Shown: piece by piece, positions 36,437 to 60,650 of the stretch
Layout of the letters: each line of letters opens with the position of its first letter
Numbering within the stretch: the first letter of the stretch is position 1
Assembly (NCBI GenBank): GCA_964016885.1
Contig: OZ024744.1
Coordinates: forward strand, 115,258,001 to 115,322,000
Direction: 5' to 3'
DNA from: Eledone cirrhosa
Taxonomy: Eukaryota
DNA length: 64,000 bases
Notes under the pieces: model-generated
What the model was told of the DNA's origin: nothing
Databases searched by the model: none
What the model saw: the letters and a program-made list of their open reading frames with translations, nothing else
Program-made: the position numbers and the translations under genes

Positions 36437-36495
<59 letters not shown>

Positions 36496-36518
36496 TGTAT
36501 ATATACATATATATAAAC

Positions 36519-36578
<60 letters not shown>

Positions 36579-36584
<6 letters not shown>

Positions 36585-37006
36585 ACGCGATATAACGGTC
36601 GTCGAGTAATCTTTGAAGTGTAGTGACTGCTGGAAAGCTGCCATTACTCATACTTCTCGCCTCCTTTACCACCTCTTCTACGGCTTCGATATAAATACCC
36701 CCTCCGCCTCCGTGGTATTTTCTTCGGGGTTATAAGAGGCTTAGCTCTGTTTCTCGACCGTTATATCGCGTGACTATCTCCCCCTCCGCCTTTTGGGATT
36801 CTTTCTCACGTCGTGTAGACGCGTTCTTGAAGCTATAAAATGAGGTATCCTCTTGATAAGTCGGCAGACCTCGCAAAGGCTCTATATCTTTATGATGTAC
36901 TGTTTTTGTTTATGCCACGAAACTACGTAGTCGAGGAATCTAGGAGCAGTTTAGGTATGATACATTTTATTACTAATTATATCTAAATGTTCCTTCTCTC
37001 TTCATA
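36579..37006 (+). mobile_element. ~430-bp non-coding element inside (TA)n, with a 23-bp inverted repeat and a hammerhead ribozyme (Penelope pLTR/retrozyme-like)
   Basis: Flanked by TA runs 36438-36580 and 37006-37250; CpG-rich. Perfect IR atagtcacgcgatataacggtcg (36579-36601) / cgaccgttatatcgcgtgactat (36755-36777). Confidence 0.7.
36848..36937 (+). ncRNA. Type I minimal hammerhead ribozyme, U3-A8 core variant
   Basis: Stem I tcctc/gagga; core TTGATAA (36853-59); stem II gt(c)ggca/tgccac; GAAA (36919-22); palindromic stem III ctacgtag; GUC triplet with predicted cut after 36932. Confidence 0.8.
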
Positions 37007-37034
37007 ATATATATATATATATGTATATATATAT

Positions 37035-37089
<55 letters not shown>

Positions 37090-37249
37090 TATATACATAT
37101 ATATATACATACATATATATATATATAGATATATAGATATATATACATATATATATATACATATATATATACATATATATATATACATATGTATATATAT
37201 ATATACATATATATATATGTATATATATATATACATATGTATATATATA

Positions 37250-38166
37250 TGAGAGTAAATCTAGCTAAGACAAAAGTGTTGATGAGTAGAAAAGAGGACA
37301 AAACCCTGATTCCGTCAGGGAAATGGCCATGTTCGATATGCAGAAAAGGAACTGGCATAAATTCTATAAAATGCACACAATGTAGGTCCTGGGTACACAA
37401 GAGATGTAGCGGGATAGCAGGCAAACTAACAGGTAGGGAGAAATATGTATGCAGTAGATGTACAGGGAAATTAGACAGTAGAAGTCGCACTGATAGACAC
37501 ATTTTTCAAATGCGAGAGGGCGCTATAGAAGTGGTGGATAGCTTCCGGTACCTAGGAGATCAGATTAGCATGGGAGGAGGGTGTTCCGAGGCCATAGTAT
37601 CTAGAATAAGGACGGGTTGGAAGAAGTTTAGGGAGCTGCTTCCTCTGTTGACGAAGAAGGGTTTCTCCCTGCGTACGAAAGGCCGGTTGTATGATGCCTG
37701 TGTGAGGAGCGCGATGCTGCATGGTAGTGAGACATGGGCAGCTACCGCAGAAGATATGCGACGGCTGGAGAGAAATGAGGCAAGCATGCTCCGTTGGATG
37801 TGCAGTGTAAATGTGCGTGAACGACCCAGCATAAATGTGTTGAGAGAGAAACTGTGTCTGAGAGGGATAGAATGTAGTGTACGGGAGAGGAGACTGAGGT
37901 GGTATGGACATGTGATGCGCATGGAGGATGACCGATGGGTGAAGAAGTGCCAGGAAATGCCAGTTGAAGGAAGACGTAGTAGAGGTAGACCACGAAAAAC
38001 ATGGGCGGAGGTGGTGAGAACAGACCTCAGATCATTGAAGCTCACGGTGGAGATGACGAGGGACCGTGACGAGTGGAGAGATGCTGTGCTGAATAAGACC
38101 CGTCCCACCCTTGCAAGCAGGGAAAGGCGGACGTAAAATGATGATGATGATGATGATGATGATGAT
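37250..38166 (+). mobile_element. 5'-truncated RTE-clade LINE (second subfamily), reading frame still open
   Basis: [10 protein letters not shown]...C4HC3 finger...VDSFRYLG...RLRWYGHVMRM...RGRPRKTW; homologous to the C-terminus of the 39827 ORF. The stop is followed directly by a (GAT)n tail; inserted in a TA/CA microsatellite. Confidence 0.93.
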
Positions 38167-39431: not shown

Positions 39432-42400
39432 ATCATCATCATCATCATCATCATCAACGTTTAACGTCCGTGTTCCACGCTTGCATGGGTTTGGACGGGG
39501 GTAGTCCCACTTGAGGCAAGAGTGATTGTCTTGCTCGCATAGGACTGTCTGGCAGGTTTTCTACAGTTGGATGCCCTTCCTAACACCAACCACATTTACA
39601 GTGTGGGTCTGGGAGGTTTTTACCGTGTTGCCTACACGGCCACATTACAGCGTGGACTGTGTGTTTTTTGTCGTGACACCTACACGATCTCATTTGTTTC
39701 GGCCTCGATGGCGCGGCACCAACATAACTTTACATAGAACGGGGTGGTGTGGATGGGGTGGTGGTGGTGGGACGGGGTGTATTTTGTTAGAGATGCCTAC
39801 TGGCTGTAGTAGGTTTTACTATATATTTAGGTAAGGCGGGTCTTCTCTGCTACTGAGTACCGCCAAAGGTCTCGGTCCAGTGACATTGTCTTGGAGAGGT
39901 GTAAGTGTGTGATGTCGGAGTTTATCAGCTCGTCCCAGGTTTTTCTAGGTCTGCCTATTCCGTGACTACCGTCTATCTTTATTGCCCTGCACTTTGTTAT
40001 ACAGCTATCGACTTTCATGCGCATCACGTGTCCATACCAACGTAGCCTTCTCTCGAGTAAACAACATCTGATCCCTCTTATCTCTAATTTTTTCCTTAGT
40101 TCGTTTATGCTTTGCCGTTCACGTATATTACTGTTACACATCCAGCGGAGAATGCAAGCTTCGTTCCTCTCTAGTCTGCGTATATCCTCTGCACACAATG
40201 CCCAGGTCTCACTGCCATGCAGCATTGCTGTTCGTATGCAGGCATCGTACAACCTGCCTTTCATTTTTAGTGAGAACCCTTTAGCAGCTAATAGTGGTAT
40301 AAGCTCTCTGAACTTTTTCCAACCAGTTCTGACTCTAGCTACAGTACTTTCAGAGCACCCTCCCCCACTGCTGATTTTATCGCCCAGGTAACGGAAGCTG
40401 TCCACTATTTCTATAGAACCCTCTGCGCAATTGAAAGAGCTAGTATTTTGTGGGCACTTGCTGCTACTTATTGCACCAGAGCACCGGCCACATGTAAAAT
40501 CTATGTTCTTAGTTAGCTTACCTGTGATCCCACTACATCTTTTATGCACCCATACTTTGCATTTAGGACATAAAATGGAGTTTCTCCCTACGCCTTTCCT
40601 ACACACCGAGCACGACCATTTCCCAGAAGGGACCGCCGCCTTGTTTTCTTTCCTACAAACTAGTACTTTGGTCTTAGCCAGGTTAATTTTAAGTCCTTTT
40701 GACTCTAGGCCGTGCTTCCATGTTTGGAATTTCTTCTCTAGCTCGGCCATTGATTCCGCTATGAGTGTCAGGTCGTCTGCGTATAGGAGTTCCCATGGGC
40801 AGCCTGTCTTGAACTCCTCTGTTATAGCCTGAAGGGCAATAATAAATAGTAGTGGGCTGAGAACAGAGCCCTGATGGACGCCAACTTTTACGCTAAACTC
40901 TTCACTATATTCGTTGTTAATTCTAACCTTGCTGACTGTTTCTTTATACATGGCTTGTATAGCCCTCACAAGCCATTCGTCAACGCCTAGTTTTCTAAGA
41001 GCCCACCAGATAATGGAGCGGGGGACTCTGTCGAAGGCTTTCTCCAAGTCGACAAAAGCTAAGTAGAGGGGTTTACCTTTAGCTAGGTACTTCTCCTGTA
41101 GTTGTCGTACTATGAAAAGAGCGTCTGTGGTACTTTTGCCTGACACAAACCCGAACTGCATTTCATCTAGGTCAATTGTCTCTCTGATTAGTTGCGCTAT
41201 TACTTTTTCCGTGACCTTCATGACCTGGTCGATTAATTTAATGCCTCTATAGTTACTCCTATCTAGGGCGTCTCCTTTACCCTTATAACAGTTAACGATG
41301 ATGCTGCTATGCCAGTCCTTCGGAACAACCCCATTCTGTACGACTTGGTTAACTATGCGGGTGACCATGGTGTGTCCCACCGTGCCAGATGCCTTCAGCA
41401 TCTCAGCAACTATTTCCGAAGGCCCAGCCGCCTTACCCGTCTTCATATCCTTGATTGCCTTACTTATTATACTCCCCTCGACTAACACTGCTGGTCCCTC
41501 TATTGGGTCGATATGGGGGAGACTGTCTTTCTCCCATTTATTCTCCTCATTTAGTAGCCTTTCATAGTGACACTTCCAAGCTACCTTCTTATCAGCGTCG
41601 GTGATGGCAAGTGTACCATCGTCGTTTAGTACACACTTCTCCCCGACAATATCACAGTTTTCCTTGACGCATTGCCTAGCAATCCTGAACACCTCACGTT
41701 TTTGGTCATCGCGTTGTAGAACATGCTTGAACTTTCTTTCCTCAGCTTCCCTTCTTGCTAAGTACACTTGTCTCCTAGCTTCCCTCCTGGCCACTTGATA
41801 GTCCTCTCTACTTCCCCCATCCCGCCATACTTTCCAAGCCTGCTTTTTGGCCTTAATTGACCCCTCCACCTTACTGTTCCACCACCATGTTACTCTCCTC
41901 CTGCCTACAGGCCTGCTCCAGCCACAGACTTCGTCTGTCGCCAACAGCAGGTTTGCTTTCAGAAATTCCCACTCTCCCTCTATATTGTCCGACTCTAAAT
42001 GTTCTTCCTTACTGTCGAAAGCATCAAGTAATATGCTTTGAAATTTATTCCTGGCTGTGGGGTCCTTTAGCTTCCATATTTTTCTCCTGAGGATAGTCCT
42101 CTTCTGCTGTCGAGTACGTCTCGTCCTGACTATGAGGTCGCTAATTATCAGTCTATGTTGGGAGGTGCATTCTTCATGGGGGAGGGATTTAGTGTTTACA
42201 ACAGACACTCTGTCACGTCTTCTGGTAAGGATATAATCTACCTGGCTTGTGTGTTCCCCGGATCTATAGGTGATCAGGTGATTGTCACATTTTTTGAAGT
42301 TAGTGTTACAGATAGTTAGGTTATTTGCATCACAGAATTCCAGGATTCTGGAGCCTTCCTCATTTCTAGTACCAAACCCATAGCCTCCATGGATTTCGTC

Positions 42401-43253
42401 GTAGCCGTCACAATGTTGTCCAACGTGACCATTTAGGTCGCCTGCGATAATTATATAGTCACTGTCGGATATTTGGGAGGTAGTTAGCATCAGTGTCTCA
42501 TAGAATCTGTCTTTTATAGTGCCGGGCAGTCCGGATTGGGGTGCGTACGCAGATATTACTGTCACCGTAGTTCTATTGAGGACAAGTCGTATTTTAATTA
42601 TTCTGTCGTTCACTCTATTTACGTCTATTATCTTATCTGCCCACTTTTCTGCTACCATGATTCCTACTCCACCCAGCCCATCGTCGTTTCCCACCCAGAA
42701 AAGCTTATAACATCGTTTTTTACCCTCAATGAACCTAGCAGACCCACCCCTCCACCTGGTCTCTTGAATACAACAAACATCGACCTCCTTACGTTCAAGC
42801 ATTTCTACAACCTCGTTAGCGCGACCCTTTAGGGTGCCTACATTTATGGTACCAACTCTGAAGTTTTGGATTGCGTTTGGGGGTTGGGGGCGGTGGGGGG
42901 CGGGGGGCGATGGGGTTATGTTAGCCGTCCGCGGTCGAAACAATGAGGAGTGCTCGCATTCTCGTCCAAGAGGTGAATTTGTCTTTATCTTTGGCATTGT
43001 CGCTGAGCGTCCAGATTTTTCTCTCTCTCTCCTCCACTCTCCAGGATTCCGCAGTCCATCCATCATATTGAGAGGCAACCAGGCAAGCGATAGTATAGGC
43101 CTCTGGCTTCTGATTGGTCCGCGTAATAATAATGGTGATGCGTGGGGGCTCTGTTTTATGATTGGTCCACGTAATAGCAATGGTGGTGCGTGGGGGTGGG
43201 GGGAGGGGGAGGGGTGGGGGGAGCTAGCTAGAAGGTAATGATTGAATGGGGTC
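39432..43253 (-). mobile_element. Apparently full-length RTE-clade LINE
   Basis: Single uninterrupted APE+RT ORF, ~400-bp 3'UTR ending ggacgttaaacgtt(GAT)n at 39432-39460, and a GC-rich 5' region. The 5' boundary is uncertain (43253 or 43760). Confidence 0.93.
39827..43066 (-). CDS. RTE LINE ORF: APE endonuclease + reverse transcriptase + PHD-like zinc finger
   Basis: APE motifs GTINV, CIQETRW, SAYAPQ, GDLNGH, VDY, SQH; RT motifs NYRGIKL, QFGF, FVDLEKAFDRV, GVHQGSVLSP, LLYADD, FRYLG. The true start is probably ATG 43066 or 42997 rather than the track's 43330. Confidence 0.95.
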   Translation of the reverse strand: MMDGLRNPGEWRREREKSGRSATMPKIKTNSPLGRECEHSSLFRPRTANITPSPPAPHRPQPPNAIQNFRVGTINVGTLKGRANEVVEMLERKEVDVCCIQETRWRGGSARFIEGKKRCYKLFWVGNDDGLGGVGIMVAEKWADKIIDVNRVNDRIIKIRLVLNRTTVTVISAYAPQSGLPGTIKDRFYETLMLTTSQISDSDYIIIAGDLNGHVGQHCDGYDEIHGGYGFGTRNEEGSRILEFCDANNLTICNTNFKKCDNHLITYRSGEHTSQVDYILTRRRDRVSVVNTKSLPHEECTSQHRLIISDLIVRTRRTRQQKRTILRRKIWKLKDPTARNKFQSILLDAFDSKEEHLESDNIEGEWEFLKANLLLATDEVCGWSRPVGRRRVTWWWNSKVEGSIKAKKQAWKVWRDGGSREDYQVARREARRQVYLARREAEERKFKHVLQRDDQKREVFRIARQCVKENCDIVGEKCVLNDDGTLAITDADKKVAWKCHYERLLNEENKWEKDSLPHIDPIEGPAVLVEGSIISKAIKDMKTGKAAGPSEIVAEMLKASGTVGHTMVTRIVNQVVQNGVVPKDWHSSIIVNCYKGKGDALDRSNYRGIKLIDQVMKVTEKVIAQLIRETIDLDEMQFGFVSGKSTTDALFIVRQLQEKYLAKGKPLYLAFVDLEKAFDRVPRSIIWWALRKLGVDEWLVRAIQAMYKETVSKVRINNEYSEEFSVKVGVHQGSVLSPLLFIIALQAITEEFKTGCPWELLYADDLTLIAESMAELEKKFQTWKHGLESKGLKINLAKTKVLVCRKENKAAVPSGKWSCSVCRKGVGRNSILCPKCKVWVHKRCSGITGKLTKNIDFTCGRCSGAISSSKCPQNTSSFNCAEGSIEIVDSFRYLGDKISSGGGCSESTVARVRTGWKKFRELIPLLAAKGFSLKMKGRLYDACIRTAMLHGSETWALCAEDIRRLERNEACILRWMCNSNIRERQSINELRKKLEIRGIRCCLLERRLRWYGHVMRMKVDSCITKCRAIKIDGSHGIGRPRKTWDELINSDITHLHLSKTMSLDRDLWRYSVAEKTRLT

Positions 43254-44239
43254 CTTGCATTTAACAAGCGATTAACAAAAATACAAAATTTGTTCTGTTG
43301 AATACGACCAAAAACTTTCGTATTTAACAATTAATAGAAACAGAAAATGTAGTTTGTTTTAGCGATAGATTGGATATTTGGACTTGATACGAAATATGGA
43401 TTGTTTTGAAAATACGCTAGAATTAGAATTAAAATACGCTAGAATCAGGATTTGTGGAGGGAGAGAAATGAAATCTGTACATTACGTTACATGAATATCG
43501 TGGGGTCGAGACAGCAAGCAATGAAATTTGGCGAAGTGAATTCCTATCATATATATATATATATAGAGGGGGGGGGGTGGCCGCATGATGGTTGTGTGTG
43601 TTAGGCGTTTGACCGCCCCATGCCTTCGAAGAAGGAAGAAGGAAAGGATTTTGTTTTTTTGTTTTGAAGATACGCTAGAATTAGGGATTGAGGTTTGAAA
43701 ATACGTTAGGAATTAAGGCTTGAAAATATGCTAGCTAGAAGGTAATGATTGAATGGGGTCACATACACACACATATCTACAACAAGACGAAGAAATTTAT
43801 GTGTACATAACACACACACATATATAAACATACGATCACACACACGTGTATATACACACACATATAACAAAGTGAAGAAAATTATGTGTATATATACACA
43901 CACATACACACACAAACACATAACAAGGTGAAGAAAGTTGTGTGTTGAAGGTTTCAAGCTGAACATAGTTTCACAATCAAATAAACAGGGTACAGTCTAG
44001 AGTATTAGGAATTAAACAGGGTACAGTCTATAAAGAATTAGGAATAAAACAGGGCACAGTCTATAGAGTATTAGGAATTAAACAGGGTACAGTCTAGAGT
44101 ATAAGGAATTAATCATTATCTTGGCAGAGTTGCCGGAAAATTCGTTCGTTGAGGGAATGCTGTTTGATAAAATTGATGACATCAATGGCCACCTGCTAGG
44201 ACTTGCTCAGAGGCTTGCTGAGTTTCTTCACAGCCAAGT

Positions 44240-54204: not shown

Positions 54205-56717
54205 TAACGCAGAACATGAAGGCTGTGTTTAAGCCATTCTATGGGCCCAAGTGGCGGAGCTGCATCGTGGCAACAAAGTCACAATCTGTTAATTGGAGGA
54301 CCATGAAGAGTGCATGCTACTCGATCCCGGGCAAACATGTGCGGCTTTTCAGCAACTCTTTACTCAGCTGTTCGAGGGAAGCGGTGGGTCGGATGGCAGG
54401 ATGGACTTTAGTGCCTACCTCGACGGACTACCGCGGCACCCAGCCACTGAGGCAGAGTGTTGCGAAATGCCAATAACAGCTGCTGAAGTACGGGAGGTAA
54501 TAACTGGCTGGCTGCACAATAGGTGAATCGCCTGGTTCGATGGCCTGCCCTATCAGCTTTACGTAAACATGCTTGACCTGTTCGGAGACCTCTTGGCGGA
54601 CATCTACTGCAACTGGCAGCAAACCGGAGAATTCCCAGCTCTGTGAGCCGAGGAGCGGTGGCGCTGCTGAGAAAGGATCCGAACAAGGGGGATAACATAG
54701 ATAATTTCAGGCCCATAACTCTGCTAAACAGAGAGTTCAAGATTTTAGCCAAGGTGCTAGCAAAGAGGTTGGCGCTTGTCGTTGGTGGTCTGGTGGGAGA
54801 GGTGCAGACATGCGCCATTCCCGACAGATCCATCCATGACAACCTCCACCTCATGCGATACATCGTCAAGATGGTCGACCATCGTTATGTGGCGGCAGTC
54901 CTGAGGGCGGCTGGCTTTGGGCCCGTCTTCAGAGGCTAGATTGCTGCCATGCAGAGCGACATCTGCTCTGTAGTGAGAGTGAACGGTCACCTTTCGGAAC
55001 CGTTCAACATCATGTGCTCGGTCCGCCAGAGATGTCCTCTCTCGTCCCTCTTGTATGTATTGACTCTCGAGCCATTACTGCACAAACTGGAGACGTTGAG
55101 GGGCGTCCTGCTTGAACTAGGATGCGGAAGAATCGTGTCAGCATATGCAGACGACGTCACCGTAGTGGTGTCTAACGCCAAACACATCGAGGCAATCGGC
55201 ACCACACTAAGAGAATGGTGACAGGAAGAGTCAGTGGGCCTGCAGCTCGGCACCTGGAGAGGCATGTCCATGCTGTCCAACAGCGTGTCGAGTGCTGGAG
55301 AGATGGACCGGTGAAATTGCTAGGGGTCTCGTTTGGTCCGGACCTTCAGACAGACAAAAACTGGGACGAGGTGACGAGCAGGGTGGCCTCTCTCACCCAG
55401 AAATGGGCAGAGAGGAAGCTATCCCTAAAAGGTCAAGCGGAGGTGGCGAATGCATACATAGCGTCCGTCATCTACTACTGCCTGACTTTTGTGCCTTGTC
55501 CTAAGCCTCGCCTGACAGCATTGGAGCATTTGCTCTTTTACTTTTTGTGGAAGGGACGCGCTCCGATGGTCAGGCAGTCCATCTGCTGTCAATACCCGCT
55601 ACGCGGAGGGCTGGACATATCATGGCTGATGATGTGCAAACATGTGCTCAGGCTACAGCATCTCCACCTTCCTCGACGGTGATCAGGTGTGGTTGTCATT
55701 TGCTAGACGTGTGTTTCCCCAGCTCGTCGCCTTGACGGAACTGCAGTCCTGGAAGCGCTTGGAGACTGGAATGTCTTCAGGCGCTCACAGCCTTCGACCA
55801 ATCGGACAATGCAATCAGTGGCAACTCCACCTCGGCATTCTATAGAGGGTTAGTGGAGGGAGAGAGCAACAATGTCCTTGGGGAGATTCTGGGCATCGAC
55901 AAAAATCAACTAGCCAATCTCTTTGAGAGAACTTTCAGGTCAGGGTCCATGGACAACTTCCAGAAATCCATGGCCTGGCAGTGCTACCGAGGAGCTTTGC
56001 CAGTTCGGGATAATCTCTACAGGCATGGAAGTGCCGTCAGCTGGGCTTGTCCGAGATGTGCGTAGGGTGACAAAACCGTCCTGCATGCACTCGTCCAATG
56101 TCCGAGCATTGCTGACTTGTGGGTTTATGTCGAACATCTGCTGTCGCATGTAGGATGGATCCGCCTATCAGCTGAGTCCATCGTGAGGATTGTCCCGCCA
56201 CCTTCCTTTAGCCTGGAAGGGCAGGCAGTTTTTATCTGTCTGGTGGCCATGGCGAAAGAGATAGTATGGTGGACATGTTTAAAAGGGCTGAAGACAAGCA
56301 CTTACCTCTTTGGTGATGCCCTGATTAACTTTTTCAAATTTTATTTGAAAAGGAAAATCAGGGTACAGAGGGAAGTGCTCTCTTCCCAGCAATTTGTTGA
56401 AAGATGAGTGAGAGAGGCAAGAATGGCCAGAGTGAATGGACCTACTCTGAGTATGTGCCTGTTATATTGTAGGTGGAAGACTGGAAGAGGGCGTTTACCC
56501 TGGCGGTCAGGGTAACCGTGGCTTTTTTTTTTAGGTCTTTCTCCAGGAGTGACCCTCGGAGGTCTCCCCCTATTGTTACATCACTTTTTATTTTGTTTTT
56601 TACACACAGAAATGCCCATTTGTACCATCCTGTATTGTCCTGTGCTGTCCTTAATGTTATACTTTATGTCAACCCTTGTGGTTAATAATGAACGCGTTAT
56701 TATTATTATTATTATTA
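54205..56717 (+). mobile_element. Decayed, 5'-truncated L1/Tx1-clade LINE
   Basis: Frameshifted pieces: SPGxDGLP, NFRPITLLNREFKILAKVLAKRL, SVRQRCPLS, SAYADDVT, KLLGV, RKLSLKG, CPRC..TVLHALVQC; ends in (TTA)n. Confidence 0.9.
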
Positions 56718-57349: not shown

Positions 57350-58563
57350 ATTTACTGTCCCGGTGCAACTGCTACATATAAAGCCTACATTCTTAGTTAA
57401 GCTTCCTGAGATCCCACTACATCTATTGTGTACCTATAGTTTGCATTTAGGGCAGAGGATGGAATTTCTAACTACACCTTTCCTACATACTGAGCAAGAC
57501 CATGGGTACACAAGAGATGTAGTGGTATCTCAGGAAGTTTAGCTAAGAACATAGGTTTTACATGTAGCTGTTGCACTGGAGCAGTAAGCAGCAAATGGCC
57601 ACAGAAAGCAAGCACTATCAAACTCTGAGAGGGCTCTGTAGAAACAGTAGACAGCTTTTGCTAACTAGGTGACCAAATTAGCAGTAGAGGTGGGTGTTCG
57701 GAAAGTACAGTCACAAGGGTAAGAACGGGATGGAAGAAGTTCAGGGAGCTACTACCTCTGTTAGCTACAAAAGGCTTTTCCCTCAAAATAAAAGGCAGAT
57801 TGTATGATGCGTGCATACGAACAGCAATGTTACATGGTAATGAGACCTGGGCGTGTGTAGAAGATTTGCGTAGATTAGAAAGAAATGAAGCCTGCATGCT
57901 CCGATGGATGTGTAATAGTAATATACGCGAACGGCAAAGCATAAATGAACTGAAAGAGAAACTAGGCATAAGAGGAATCAGATGCAGTGTGCAGGAGAGG
58001 AAATTGCATTGGTATGGTCATGTGATGCATATGAAGTATGACAGCTGCATAAAAAGGTGCAAGGAACTCAAAGTTCATGAAAGCTATGAAAGAGGAGGAC
58101 CTAGGAAAGCTTAGGATGAGGTTGATAAAAGCTGACCTTGCACAATTGCACCTCTCAAAGGTGATGACACTGGATAGAGATCTTTGTCATTGCGCAGTAA
58201 TACAGAAAACCTAACTTCTCTTGTACATGGGTTGAAGCATACATCTTGTATGCACCACCTCCACCTCTCATATCAGAACACCACACCCATGACCTAACAC
58301 CTCAACCATCACCTATGTCCCTAGATCTACCTCCCCAATCCCCCCACACACCCCATCCAAGTCCCTAGCCCACACTGTAAAGTGGTTATGTAGGTGTCAT
58401 GACAAAAAGCACCTAGTACTCACTGTCAATGTGGCTGGTGTTAGGAAAGGCATCCAGCTGTAGAAACCAAGCCCAAAACAGTTCTGTATGAGTAAGACAT
58501 GGTCACCTGACCAGACTTGTCTAACCAGTGCTAGTATGGAAAATGGACATTAAACAGTGATGA
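57350..58563 (+). mobile_element. Decayed 5'-truncated RTE LINE with an inverted 5' segment (57350-57502)
   Basis: 57503-58215 is closely similar to the C-terminus of the 39827 ORF; 3'UTR ends ggacattaaacagtgatgat; 57350-57502 is the zinc-finger region in opposite orientation. Confidence 0.9.
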
Positions 58564-59447: not shown

Positions 59448-60650
59448 CTATCTCCCAGCTCCTTTCTCTCTTGTCTTAACTTCATCCAAATATTGTTCAA
59501 AGCCAGATTCCTGCAGTGGGTAACGATATTCTTCATACAAATCAGACTCAACCAGTTGCTTTCTAAATTCCTTCACAGTCGAAGTCCTGTCTTCCCTGTT
59601 CTGGTATTTTATCTCCTTGCAGAAATTGTATCCATCCATATTCAAATGAGACACCCCCAAGTCGTTCAAAAGAGCCTTGTGATGAATCTCAGCCGAGGTT
59701 TTATGGTCATATTTGCTTTGAAGCATGCAATCAACATCCAGTTTTACAACAATTTCATTAAATTTCTTCATTGCCATTTCTTTCCCTCCATTAAACAGAT
59801 CGCAGTGTGCCAGCCACATGTAAATATTCACATATATATAATGTTTTGACTTTGTCTCCTTCATTATATCAGCTGCAGTTTCCAGACATTCCATACCATT
59901 TTTCAGATGTCTCATCCTGATGTAGATCTTTGCTTTAGCCAAGAATATCCTAGCAAAATTGATATGTCTGCAGCAAAATTCCCTTCAGACATCATTGATG
60001 ATCATTGTATAAATCAGACTCTATGTCAGCAATATAACACATGAGCACGCTCCAACAATGCCTTTTCAGTTCCTCCAGAGACAATTTGTAACATGTTAAT
60101 GCTTCTTCTAGGTTCCCTAGCAGAAATTCTGTCCAAGCCAATGTACTTACAACAATGCCATATGTCGGATGGTCTGAATATTTGGGATCGTCATACAATT
60201 CTTTGGCAATTTCATGACCTCTGGCAGTTTCACCCAAACATAAGGAGTTGTATGAAGCGAAGTTCAAGACGTAATACAAATTAAACCTCACAACTTCATT
60301 GTCTTTATCAACTATCGTTAGTTTACATGCCTCTTTGTAACACCTGTCAGTTTTCTTGTCTTCAACTTGCCAATACGAGCAGAGGGCTAAAGCATTATAT
60401 GTATTGAGACATTTGGGTTTCATATTCAACTCCTATCTAGAGCCTTCTCACAATGTTGCGCACCTTCGGCCAGATTACTGTTAGCTGAGCTTTTTATCAT
60501 AGTTTGACCCATTCACAACTGCAATAATGCCTTTTGATCCTTTCTTCCAAAGTAGCAAGAATTATCATAACATATTTGCTAAGTCTCAGAAGCTTCTCCT
60601 GGGAAGAGAGTGATAGATTGATATGCCATATCAGCAATTTGATAATGTCT
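59448..60650 (-). pseudogene. Intronless, disrupted TPR-like helical-repeat protein sequence nested in the intron
   Basis: ORFs 59992..60429 and 59448..59942 in different frames, plus a stop-containing upstream frame (KALLQL*MGQTM...AEGAQHCEKAL). TPR-like patterns: STLAWTEFLLGNLEEALTCYKLSL, LAKAKIYIRMRHLKNGMECLETA. Confidence 0.6.

Follow-up and report, generated by a model that had tools for sequence, protein, structure and literature searches.

A U3-A8 hammerhead ribozyme of Eledone cirrhosa and the insertion record of the retrozyme-like repeat that carries it

The hammerhead motif and its repeat unit

A 64,000-nt stretch of the Eledone cirrhosa genome (contig OZ024744.1, forward strand, positions 115,258,001 to 115,322,000; the whole stretch is called the window and its numbering is used here) contains a hammerhead-like arrangement in which the usual CUGANGA of the core is replaced by UUGAUAA. 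This locus raises the question whether a ribozyme with such a core is real and how it came to lie between two arrays of TA repeats. The type I motif, which extends from stem I to stem I at 36848-36937 (+), is real, and all letters of the topology claimed in the original prediction were found in place. Stem I is formed by UCCUC (36848-52) and GAGGA (36933-37). The core 5' strand UUGAUAA (36853-36859), with U3 at 36853 and A8 at 36858, is followed by an extended stem II (36860-36918) that starts with the G10.1-C11.1 pair (36860/36918), by the GAAA strand (36919-22) and by stem III (36922-36931), a perfect 10-nt palindrome (ACUACGUAGU) that is dimer-capable according to the fold calculation. With the GUC triplet at 36930-32, core numbering puts the predicted scissile bond GUC/G at 36932/36933. 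The conserved core thus has a Watson-Crick 3-8 pair (in its U3-A8 variant), GAAA and UH, and is surrounded by three helices, with stem I open, which are supported by covariation. A strict descriptor permitting C3-G8 or U3-A8 matched only once on the two strands of the window and not at all in 100 base-shuffled 16-kb samples. The expectation that standard models would miss the motif also held, as Rfam searches with the region and with the full repeat unit returned no hammerhead family at E ≤ 10, likely because of the long stem II and the core change. The U3-A8 core by itself is already known, natural hammerheads of this kind having been published (PMC4209133, PMC3088659).

The original prediction did not recognise that the motif belongs to a mobile unit present in thousands of copies. 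In the 3.0 Gb genome, 6,077 matches to the core pattern were counted (reversed control, 0), of which 6,051 combine U3 and A8; 12 lack U3, 14 lack A8 and none has C3 and G8. A word at q15-32 of the unit is found 7,519 times (unit numbering q1-q592, q1 being the base 3' of the predicted cut, so that the scissile bond is q592/q1). The unit is about 590 nt long (580-597, reference period 592 nt), has a GC content of 42.9% and is arranged in tandem elsewhere in the genome; its subfamilies span 77-100% identity to the reference unit. No ORF of at least 150 amino acids derived from the unit was found. In the window, the motif sits in a 434-nt island flanked by two (TA)n arrays (36439-36581 and 37007-37250). 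The island consists of the sense arm of a truncated copy (36601-37012, +; q261-q592, then q1-q80), which ends at the site termed A below, and of a short inverted arm placed head-to-head with it (36579-36601, -; 23 nt, q415-437), which ends at a minor site. Target site duplications are unreadable, because the insertions lie inside (TA)n. Judged by its sequence, the unit can be classed as a non-LTR retrozyme, in other words as a non-autonomous Penelope-like element: its tandem units each carry a type I hammerhead, do not code for protein, are low in GC and pair strongly with themselves. The Penelope link drawn in the original prediction is supported by partial tandems, head-to-head inverted copies, a tail on one end and variable 5' truncation.

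Several other repeats are present in the window. A 26-kb satellite at 8154-34609 comprises 481 copies of a 55-nt unit with 95% matches, and further arrays have units of 47, 46, 58, 31, 74 and 29 nt. An open frame of 1,167 codons with endonuclease and reverse transcriptase (RT) motifs (39827-43330, -), which we take to be an RTE-like LINE, has fragments of its type at 37129-38136 (+) and 57665-58114 (-). The broken RT frames at 54408-56407 (+) presumably resemble an L1/Tx1-type element. Two short protein-like frames, helical-repeat-like by eye, lie end to end on opposite strands (59448-59984, + and 59992-60432, -).

Folding and conservation of the ribozyme

The original prediction described an unusually long loop II (~46 nt) and a minimal hammerhead with a loop-less stem III; neither description withstood folding. 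The supposed loop forms 7 + 6 additional base pairs with internal loops, so that stem II consists of 5-6 proximal base pairs, an internal loop and two distal helices (7 bp, 36874-80/36902-08; 6 bp, 36883-88/36894-99; +). Stem III can close as a monomer with 3 bp and a 4-nt loop (+1.5 kcal/mol in isolation) and forms a 10-bp duplex at -12.9 kcal/mol. With its extended stem II and monomer-closable stem III, the motif cannot be called minimal, nor is it loop-less in the strict sense. The predicted dimer potential was supported: two copies cofold as a double hammerhead via the 10-nt palindrome (-62.3 kcal/mol, compared to twice -24.3 kcal/mol for separate monomers). For the monomer, the active fold is 1.1 kcal/mol less stable than the minimum, and the unit folded as a circle is more stable than its shuffles (z -5.3).

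An additional interaction is predicted between UGAGGU 5' of stem I (36841-46) and ACCUCG in the first internal loop of stem II (36868-73), together spanning 36841-36873 (+). The two strands (UGAGGU and ACCUCR) are complementary over 5-6 bp in the near and in the distant family (by eye in the latter), with one double change. Probably the two strands form a pseudoknot between stems I and II like those of PMC3088659, with which they share a potential of 5-6 bp between a stem I-adjacent strand and a stem II loop; unlike in those hammerheads, the predicted partner strand lies in an internal loop within the long stem II. A competing helix is the alternative, and in the RNAalifold fold that uses the UGAGGU helix the hammerhead is absent. 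An extension of stem I predicted for the window copy was dropped, since other copies do not conserve it.

Two groups of relatives were used to judge conservation. The older 580-nt subfamily is 76% identical over the aligned part, and its sister pattern has 274 genome matches (100 with U3 and 99 with A8 among the first 100 listed). The distant and much older sister family (L281:610-875, L289-L294), with 1,200 first-look candidates and a period of ~762 nt in a single locus (L292), has the same U3-A8 core (U3 in 56 of 56, A8 in 50 of 56), stems with compensatory changes and, as stem III, a palindrome of 8 nt that differs in sequence from the 10-nt palindrome of the near family. Across ten natural copies (four near, six distant), 94.8% of cells were paired, compared to 33-49% in slid controls of the same alignment. 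Double-sided changes were found at 9 of 23 pairs (two in stem I, one at 10.2-11.2 and six in distal stem II, where 6 of 13 pairs changed on both sides across the families); they reflect mainly one family split (four versus six rows), not independent events. The covariation signal depends on including the distant family, and 14 near copies, from young and old subfamilies alone, showed covariation not above shuffles. In 69 full units of five clusters, 6 of the 42 core sites were variable, compared to 183 of 538 outside the core, a count that takes in alignment-edge artefacts and two single-copy clusters. Taken with the pairing data, core and stems are kept relative to their flanks; the motif thereby withstood the original prediction's own refuting condition, a failure of other genomic copies to conserve them.

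The double-sided changes and the different palindrome in the sister family indicate that the structure is under selection. The covariation claimed for the 3-8 pair in the original prediction is not borne out: the C3-G8 pattern for the retrozyme lineage had no genome match, and no C3-G8 relative was found in the near, 580-nt or distant families. By its distribution, U3-A8 goes back to a single change in the ancestor, passed on to all copies, and does not represent repeated covariation. A dead relic, spread at the DNA level as part of a satellite or foldback element, would be compatible with the missing Rfam match and with a 106-nt segment that is no more stable than shuffles (z -1.04). Such an origin is very improbable in view of the compensatory changes and the re-made palindrome, and of the fixed 3' ends with variable 5' truncation, the dispersed (TA)n insertion and the geometry like that of RT-encoding elements detailed below.

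Insertion anatomy and the template

The 3' ends of the copies fall at two AU-rich sites, A at q~74-80 (counted over q70-82) and B at q~242-246 (counted over q231-254). In a first sample of 56 loci, drawn from the first 100 core matches on C1 after removal of one duplicate, 84 3' ends were uncut. Of these, 41 were located at A and 40 at B, and TA repeats follow in 79 of the 81. Half of the loci (28 of 56) are head-to-head inversions, and the single-orientation loci comprise 14 ending at A, 13 at B and one elsewhere. The 5' ends in this sample are scattered over the unit without a promoter-like pile-up. A larger set (L001-127 and L178-267, de-duplicated) contained 108 distinct inverted loci; some locus sets were picked by a query that fixes the end of one arm, the end of the other arm staying free. 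Among the 95 classifiable inverted loci, 88 have one arm ending at A and the other at B, while seven are A+A or B+B (p 6e-19 versus 50:50). The remaining 13 of 108, including the window copy, have an end elsewhere.

The two arms of a locus share private variants and differ at 61 of 7,630 sites (0.8%), units within an arm differ at 72 of 20,506 sites (0.35%), and arms of different loci differ by 2.7% (median). The low divergence within loci implies that each locus was derived from one template. Unit junctions are free of indels in 270 of 272 cases, and the longest arms reach 2,907 nt.

The 5' ends at the predicted cut site were counted with patterns requiring a break near the site and tallied by eye in the first 100 rows. 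Upstream (first 100 of 118 matches), 20 breaks were located at q1 compared to a mean of 4.5 (0-9) at the 14 positions q579-592, with 12 rows at q578 (another footing) and five indels set aside. Downstream (first 100 of 202 matches; 17 indels set aside), 14 breaks at q1 compare to a mean of 4.9 at q2-15 and to an expectation of 6.6 at q1 after footing correction. The corresponding Poisson tails (7e-8 and 0.008, respectively) are too generous given overdispersion. A first test with seven matches from one subfamily had given no pile-up at q1 and was replaced by the modest peak of these wider tests. Some copies consist of exactly q1-80 joined to TA, solo q1-243 copies are present as well, and in some loci both arms start at q1. 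The peak hints at cleavage in vivo, and cut linear RNA probably exists, as far as genomic copies can tell; a pause of the polymerase at stem I could produce the peak instead. Only ~40 of 7,519 passes (~0.5%) stop at the cut site and ~99.5% read through, so that nearly all templates must have been continuous across the site, either as ligated circles or as uncut multimers.

The reading we prefer, at a probability of roughly 0.58, is that ribozyme-cut unit RNAs close to circles and are copied by a Penelope-like RT-endonuclease from both ends of a DNA break. The course we infer would begin with transcription of a locus with two ribozymes into a multi-unit RNA, which the ribozymes would cut, probably as a dimer via the palindrome and aided by the pseudoknot. 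The unit RNA would then ligate into a stable circle. A borrowed Neptune/Nematis-like RT-endonuclease would break (TA)n, and one broken end would prime at A and the other at B of the same RNA. Both cDNAs may be extended by strand displacement past the junction and halt at random, after which the two truncated cDNAs would be joined head to head, or a single cDNA joined to the target. The mixed A+B rule is simply explained in this way, because one circle has one A and one B. The full version, in which a single ribozyme-made circle copied from both (TA)n ends accounts for tandems, inversions and one-sided tail and the q1 peak is a record of cleavage in vivo, falls somewhat short of even odds. For A to be paired with B, a single RNA or complex is needed but no circle, and the same rule would follow from a protein dimer bound to a single tail of a linear RNA.

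Published data on related elements bear on both steps. A Penelope-like element of the anole has two internal start sites, the distance between which equals the tail, its protein is a predicted dimer, and both strands are cut and extended; in vitro it works on unprocessed RNA and does not depend on cleavage by the hammerhead (PMC11167929). For the hammerheads of Penelope elements, low activity has been reported and a circle model proposed (PMC4209133). In Xenopus, eight of nine retrozyme dimers were without cleavage (bioRxiv 10.64898/2026.07.22.740005), and circular RNA was demonstrated for other retrozymes (PMC7229834). For Penelope-like elements, tails often present at one end only are described, and head-to-head inversions have been ascribed to other mechanisms (PMC8557442, PMC3846280).

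The same element with two-site priming might also use an uncleaved linear multi-unit transcript, with the hammerhead cutting only occasionally, e.g. to release the RNA from host read-through transcripts or once a protein is bound. We regard this as rather unlikely, even though it agrees with the ~99.5% of passes that cross the cut site and with unprocessed RNA as the main in vitro substrate of the anole element (PMC11167929). Uniform arms would likewise be expected from young source arrays whose units are nearly identical, and arm counts drop steeply with unit number (76, 28, 4 and 1 of 85 arms cross at least one, two, three and four junctions), a decay that does not discriminate a circular from a linear template. 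On the other side, most loci have just one or two units, so that arrays copied only linearly should become shorter; nevertheless, arms of about five units are present, and several subfamilies have followed one another. The scatter of 5' ends along the unit without a promoter-like pile-up also argues against a linear template. An RT jumping from the 5' end of one ribozyme-made linear monomer to the 3' end of another could build tandems as well and would account for the 5'-end peak exactly at q1, including the solo q1-80 and q1-243 copies and the loci with both arms at q1. This is improbable, since ~99.5% of the jumps would have to be successful, with 270 of 272 junctions free of indels, and every jump would have to land on the same variant (divergence 0.35% in arms, 2.7% between loci).

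Autonomous elements and known systems

GIY-YIG frames beside some retrozyme copies led to two autonomous families, among ~59,000 first-look candidates of autonomous Penelope-like families. In the older, abundant one (L128-L177), a clean C3-G8 hammerhead with a long stem II and a palindromic stem III is located ~1.1-1.3 kb after the ORF; its two 3' ends are ~96 nt apart, and all six resolvable inverted loci are mixed. The younger one (L288:503-2800, +; L268-L287) has many open frames of 781 codons with a 765-amino-acid ORF from ATG, a tandem period of 3,115 nt and copies 94-100% alike over the part searched. Its two 3' ends are 108 nt apart (both resolvable inverted pairs are mixed), and it carries a hammerhead-like core in which stem II is very long and stem III palindromic, but no clear stem I is seen. 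By eye, the 765-amino-acid ORF contains RT motifs, a cysteine-rich linker motif as well as a GIY-YIG at the C-terminal end; a Pfam search for the autonomous Penelope-like protein gave no match. The cysteine-rich linker suggests an affiliation to Neptune or Nematis (PMC8557442). Homology between the unit and the terminal repeat of an autonomous helper was looked for in these two families and not found. Copies of the retrozyme and of Penelope-like elements are inserted into the (TA)n arrays that flank one another, which gives rise to clusters of insertions (L005, L024/L270, L026/L128 and L281).

Like metazoan non-LTR retrozymes (PMC7229834; bioRxiv 10.64898/2026.07.22.740005), the repeat has ORF-less tandem units with one type I hammerhead each, a GC content below 45%, strong self-pairing, thousands of copies and coexisting Penelope-like elements. 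Its unit (580-597 nt; 762 in the distant family) is longer than the typical 150-450 nt (PMC7229834) but within the 51-972 nt given in the bioRxiv report. It differs from these retrozymes by the U3-A8 core, the long stem II with predicted pseudoknot and the dispersed short arrays in (TA)n with inversions; here the family is known from DNA and circles are predicted. The Cercyon hammerheads of Schistosoma mansoni (about 1,300 matches) have the same U3-A8 change and a palindromic stem III region, but are minimal, heterogeneous and mostly single, whereas the present retrozyme is extended, homogeneous, tandem and ORF-less (PMC4209133). With EN+ Penelope-like elements of the Neptune/Nematis type and Naiad it shares partial tandems, an inverted 5'-truncated copy, a tail that is often confined to one end, a pair of internal start sites and the (TA)n preference, while its unit has no ORF and its tail is ~163 nt instead of 30-40 nt (PMC8557442, PMC3846280, PMC11167929). 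The start sites have TA-like microhomology to the target, in contrast to the anole element, which starts at a non-homologous site (PMC11167929).

Among the openly accessible papers covered by the literature search, no description of this retrozyme family, and neither a counted A/B rule nor twin priming for Penelope-like elements, was found; supplements may list related motifs. The accessible part of PMC13282606 mentions neither ribozyme nor hammerhead. The origin of Penelope-like tandems, inversions and tails and the cutting of hammerheads in vivo are stated as open questions (PMC8557442, PMC11167929, PMC4209133).

The repeat is an abundant new retrozyme lineage with a selected hammerhead, and its insertion record is worth more than the core change. 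A whole abundant lineage of retrozymes escapes CUGANGA descriptors and Rfam. Its thousands of young, short copies allow rules to be counted, namely one arm per priming site and a peak at the cut site, and the intact young autonomous element in the same genome is a source of protein for a direct test.
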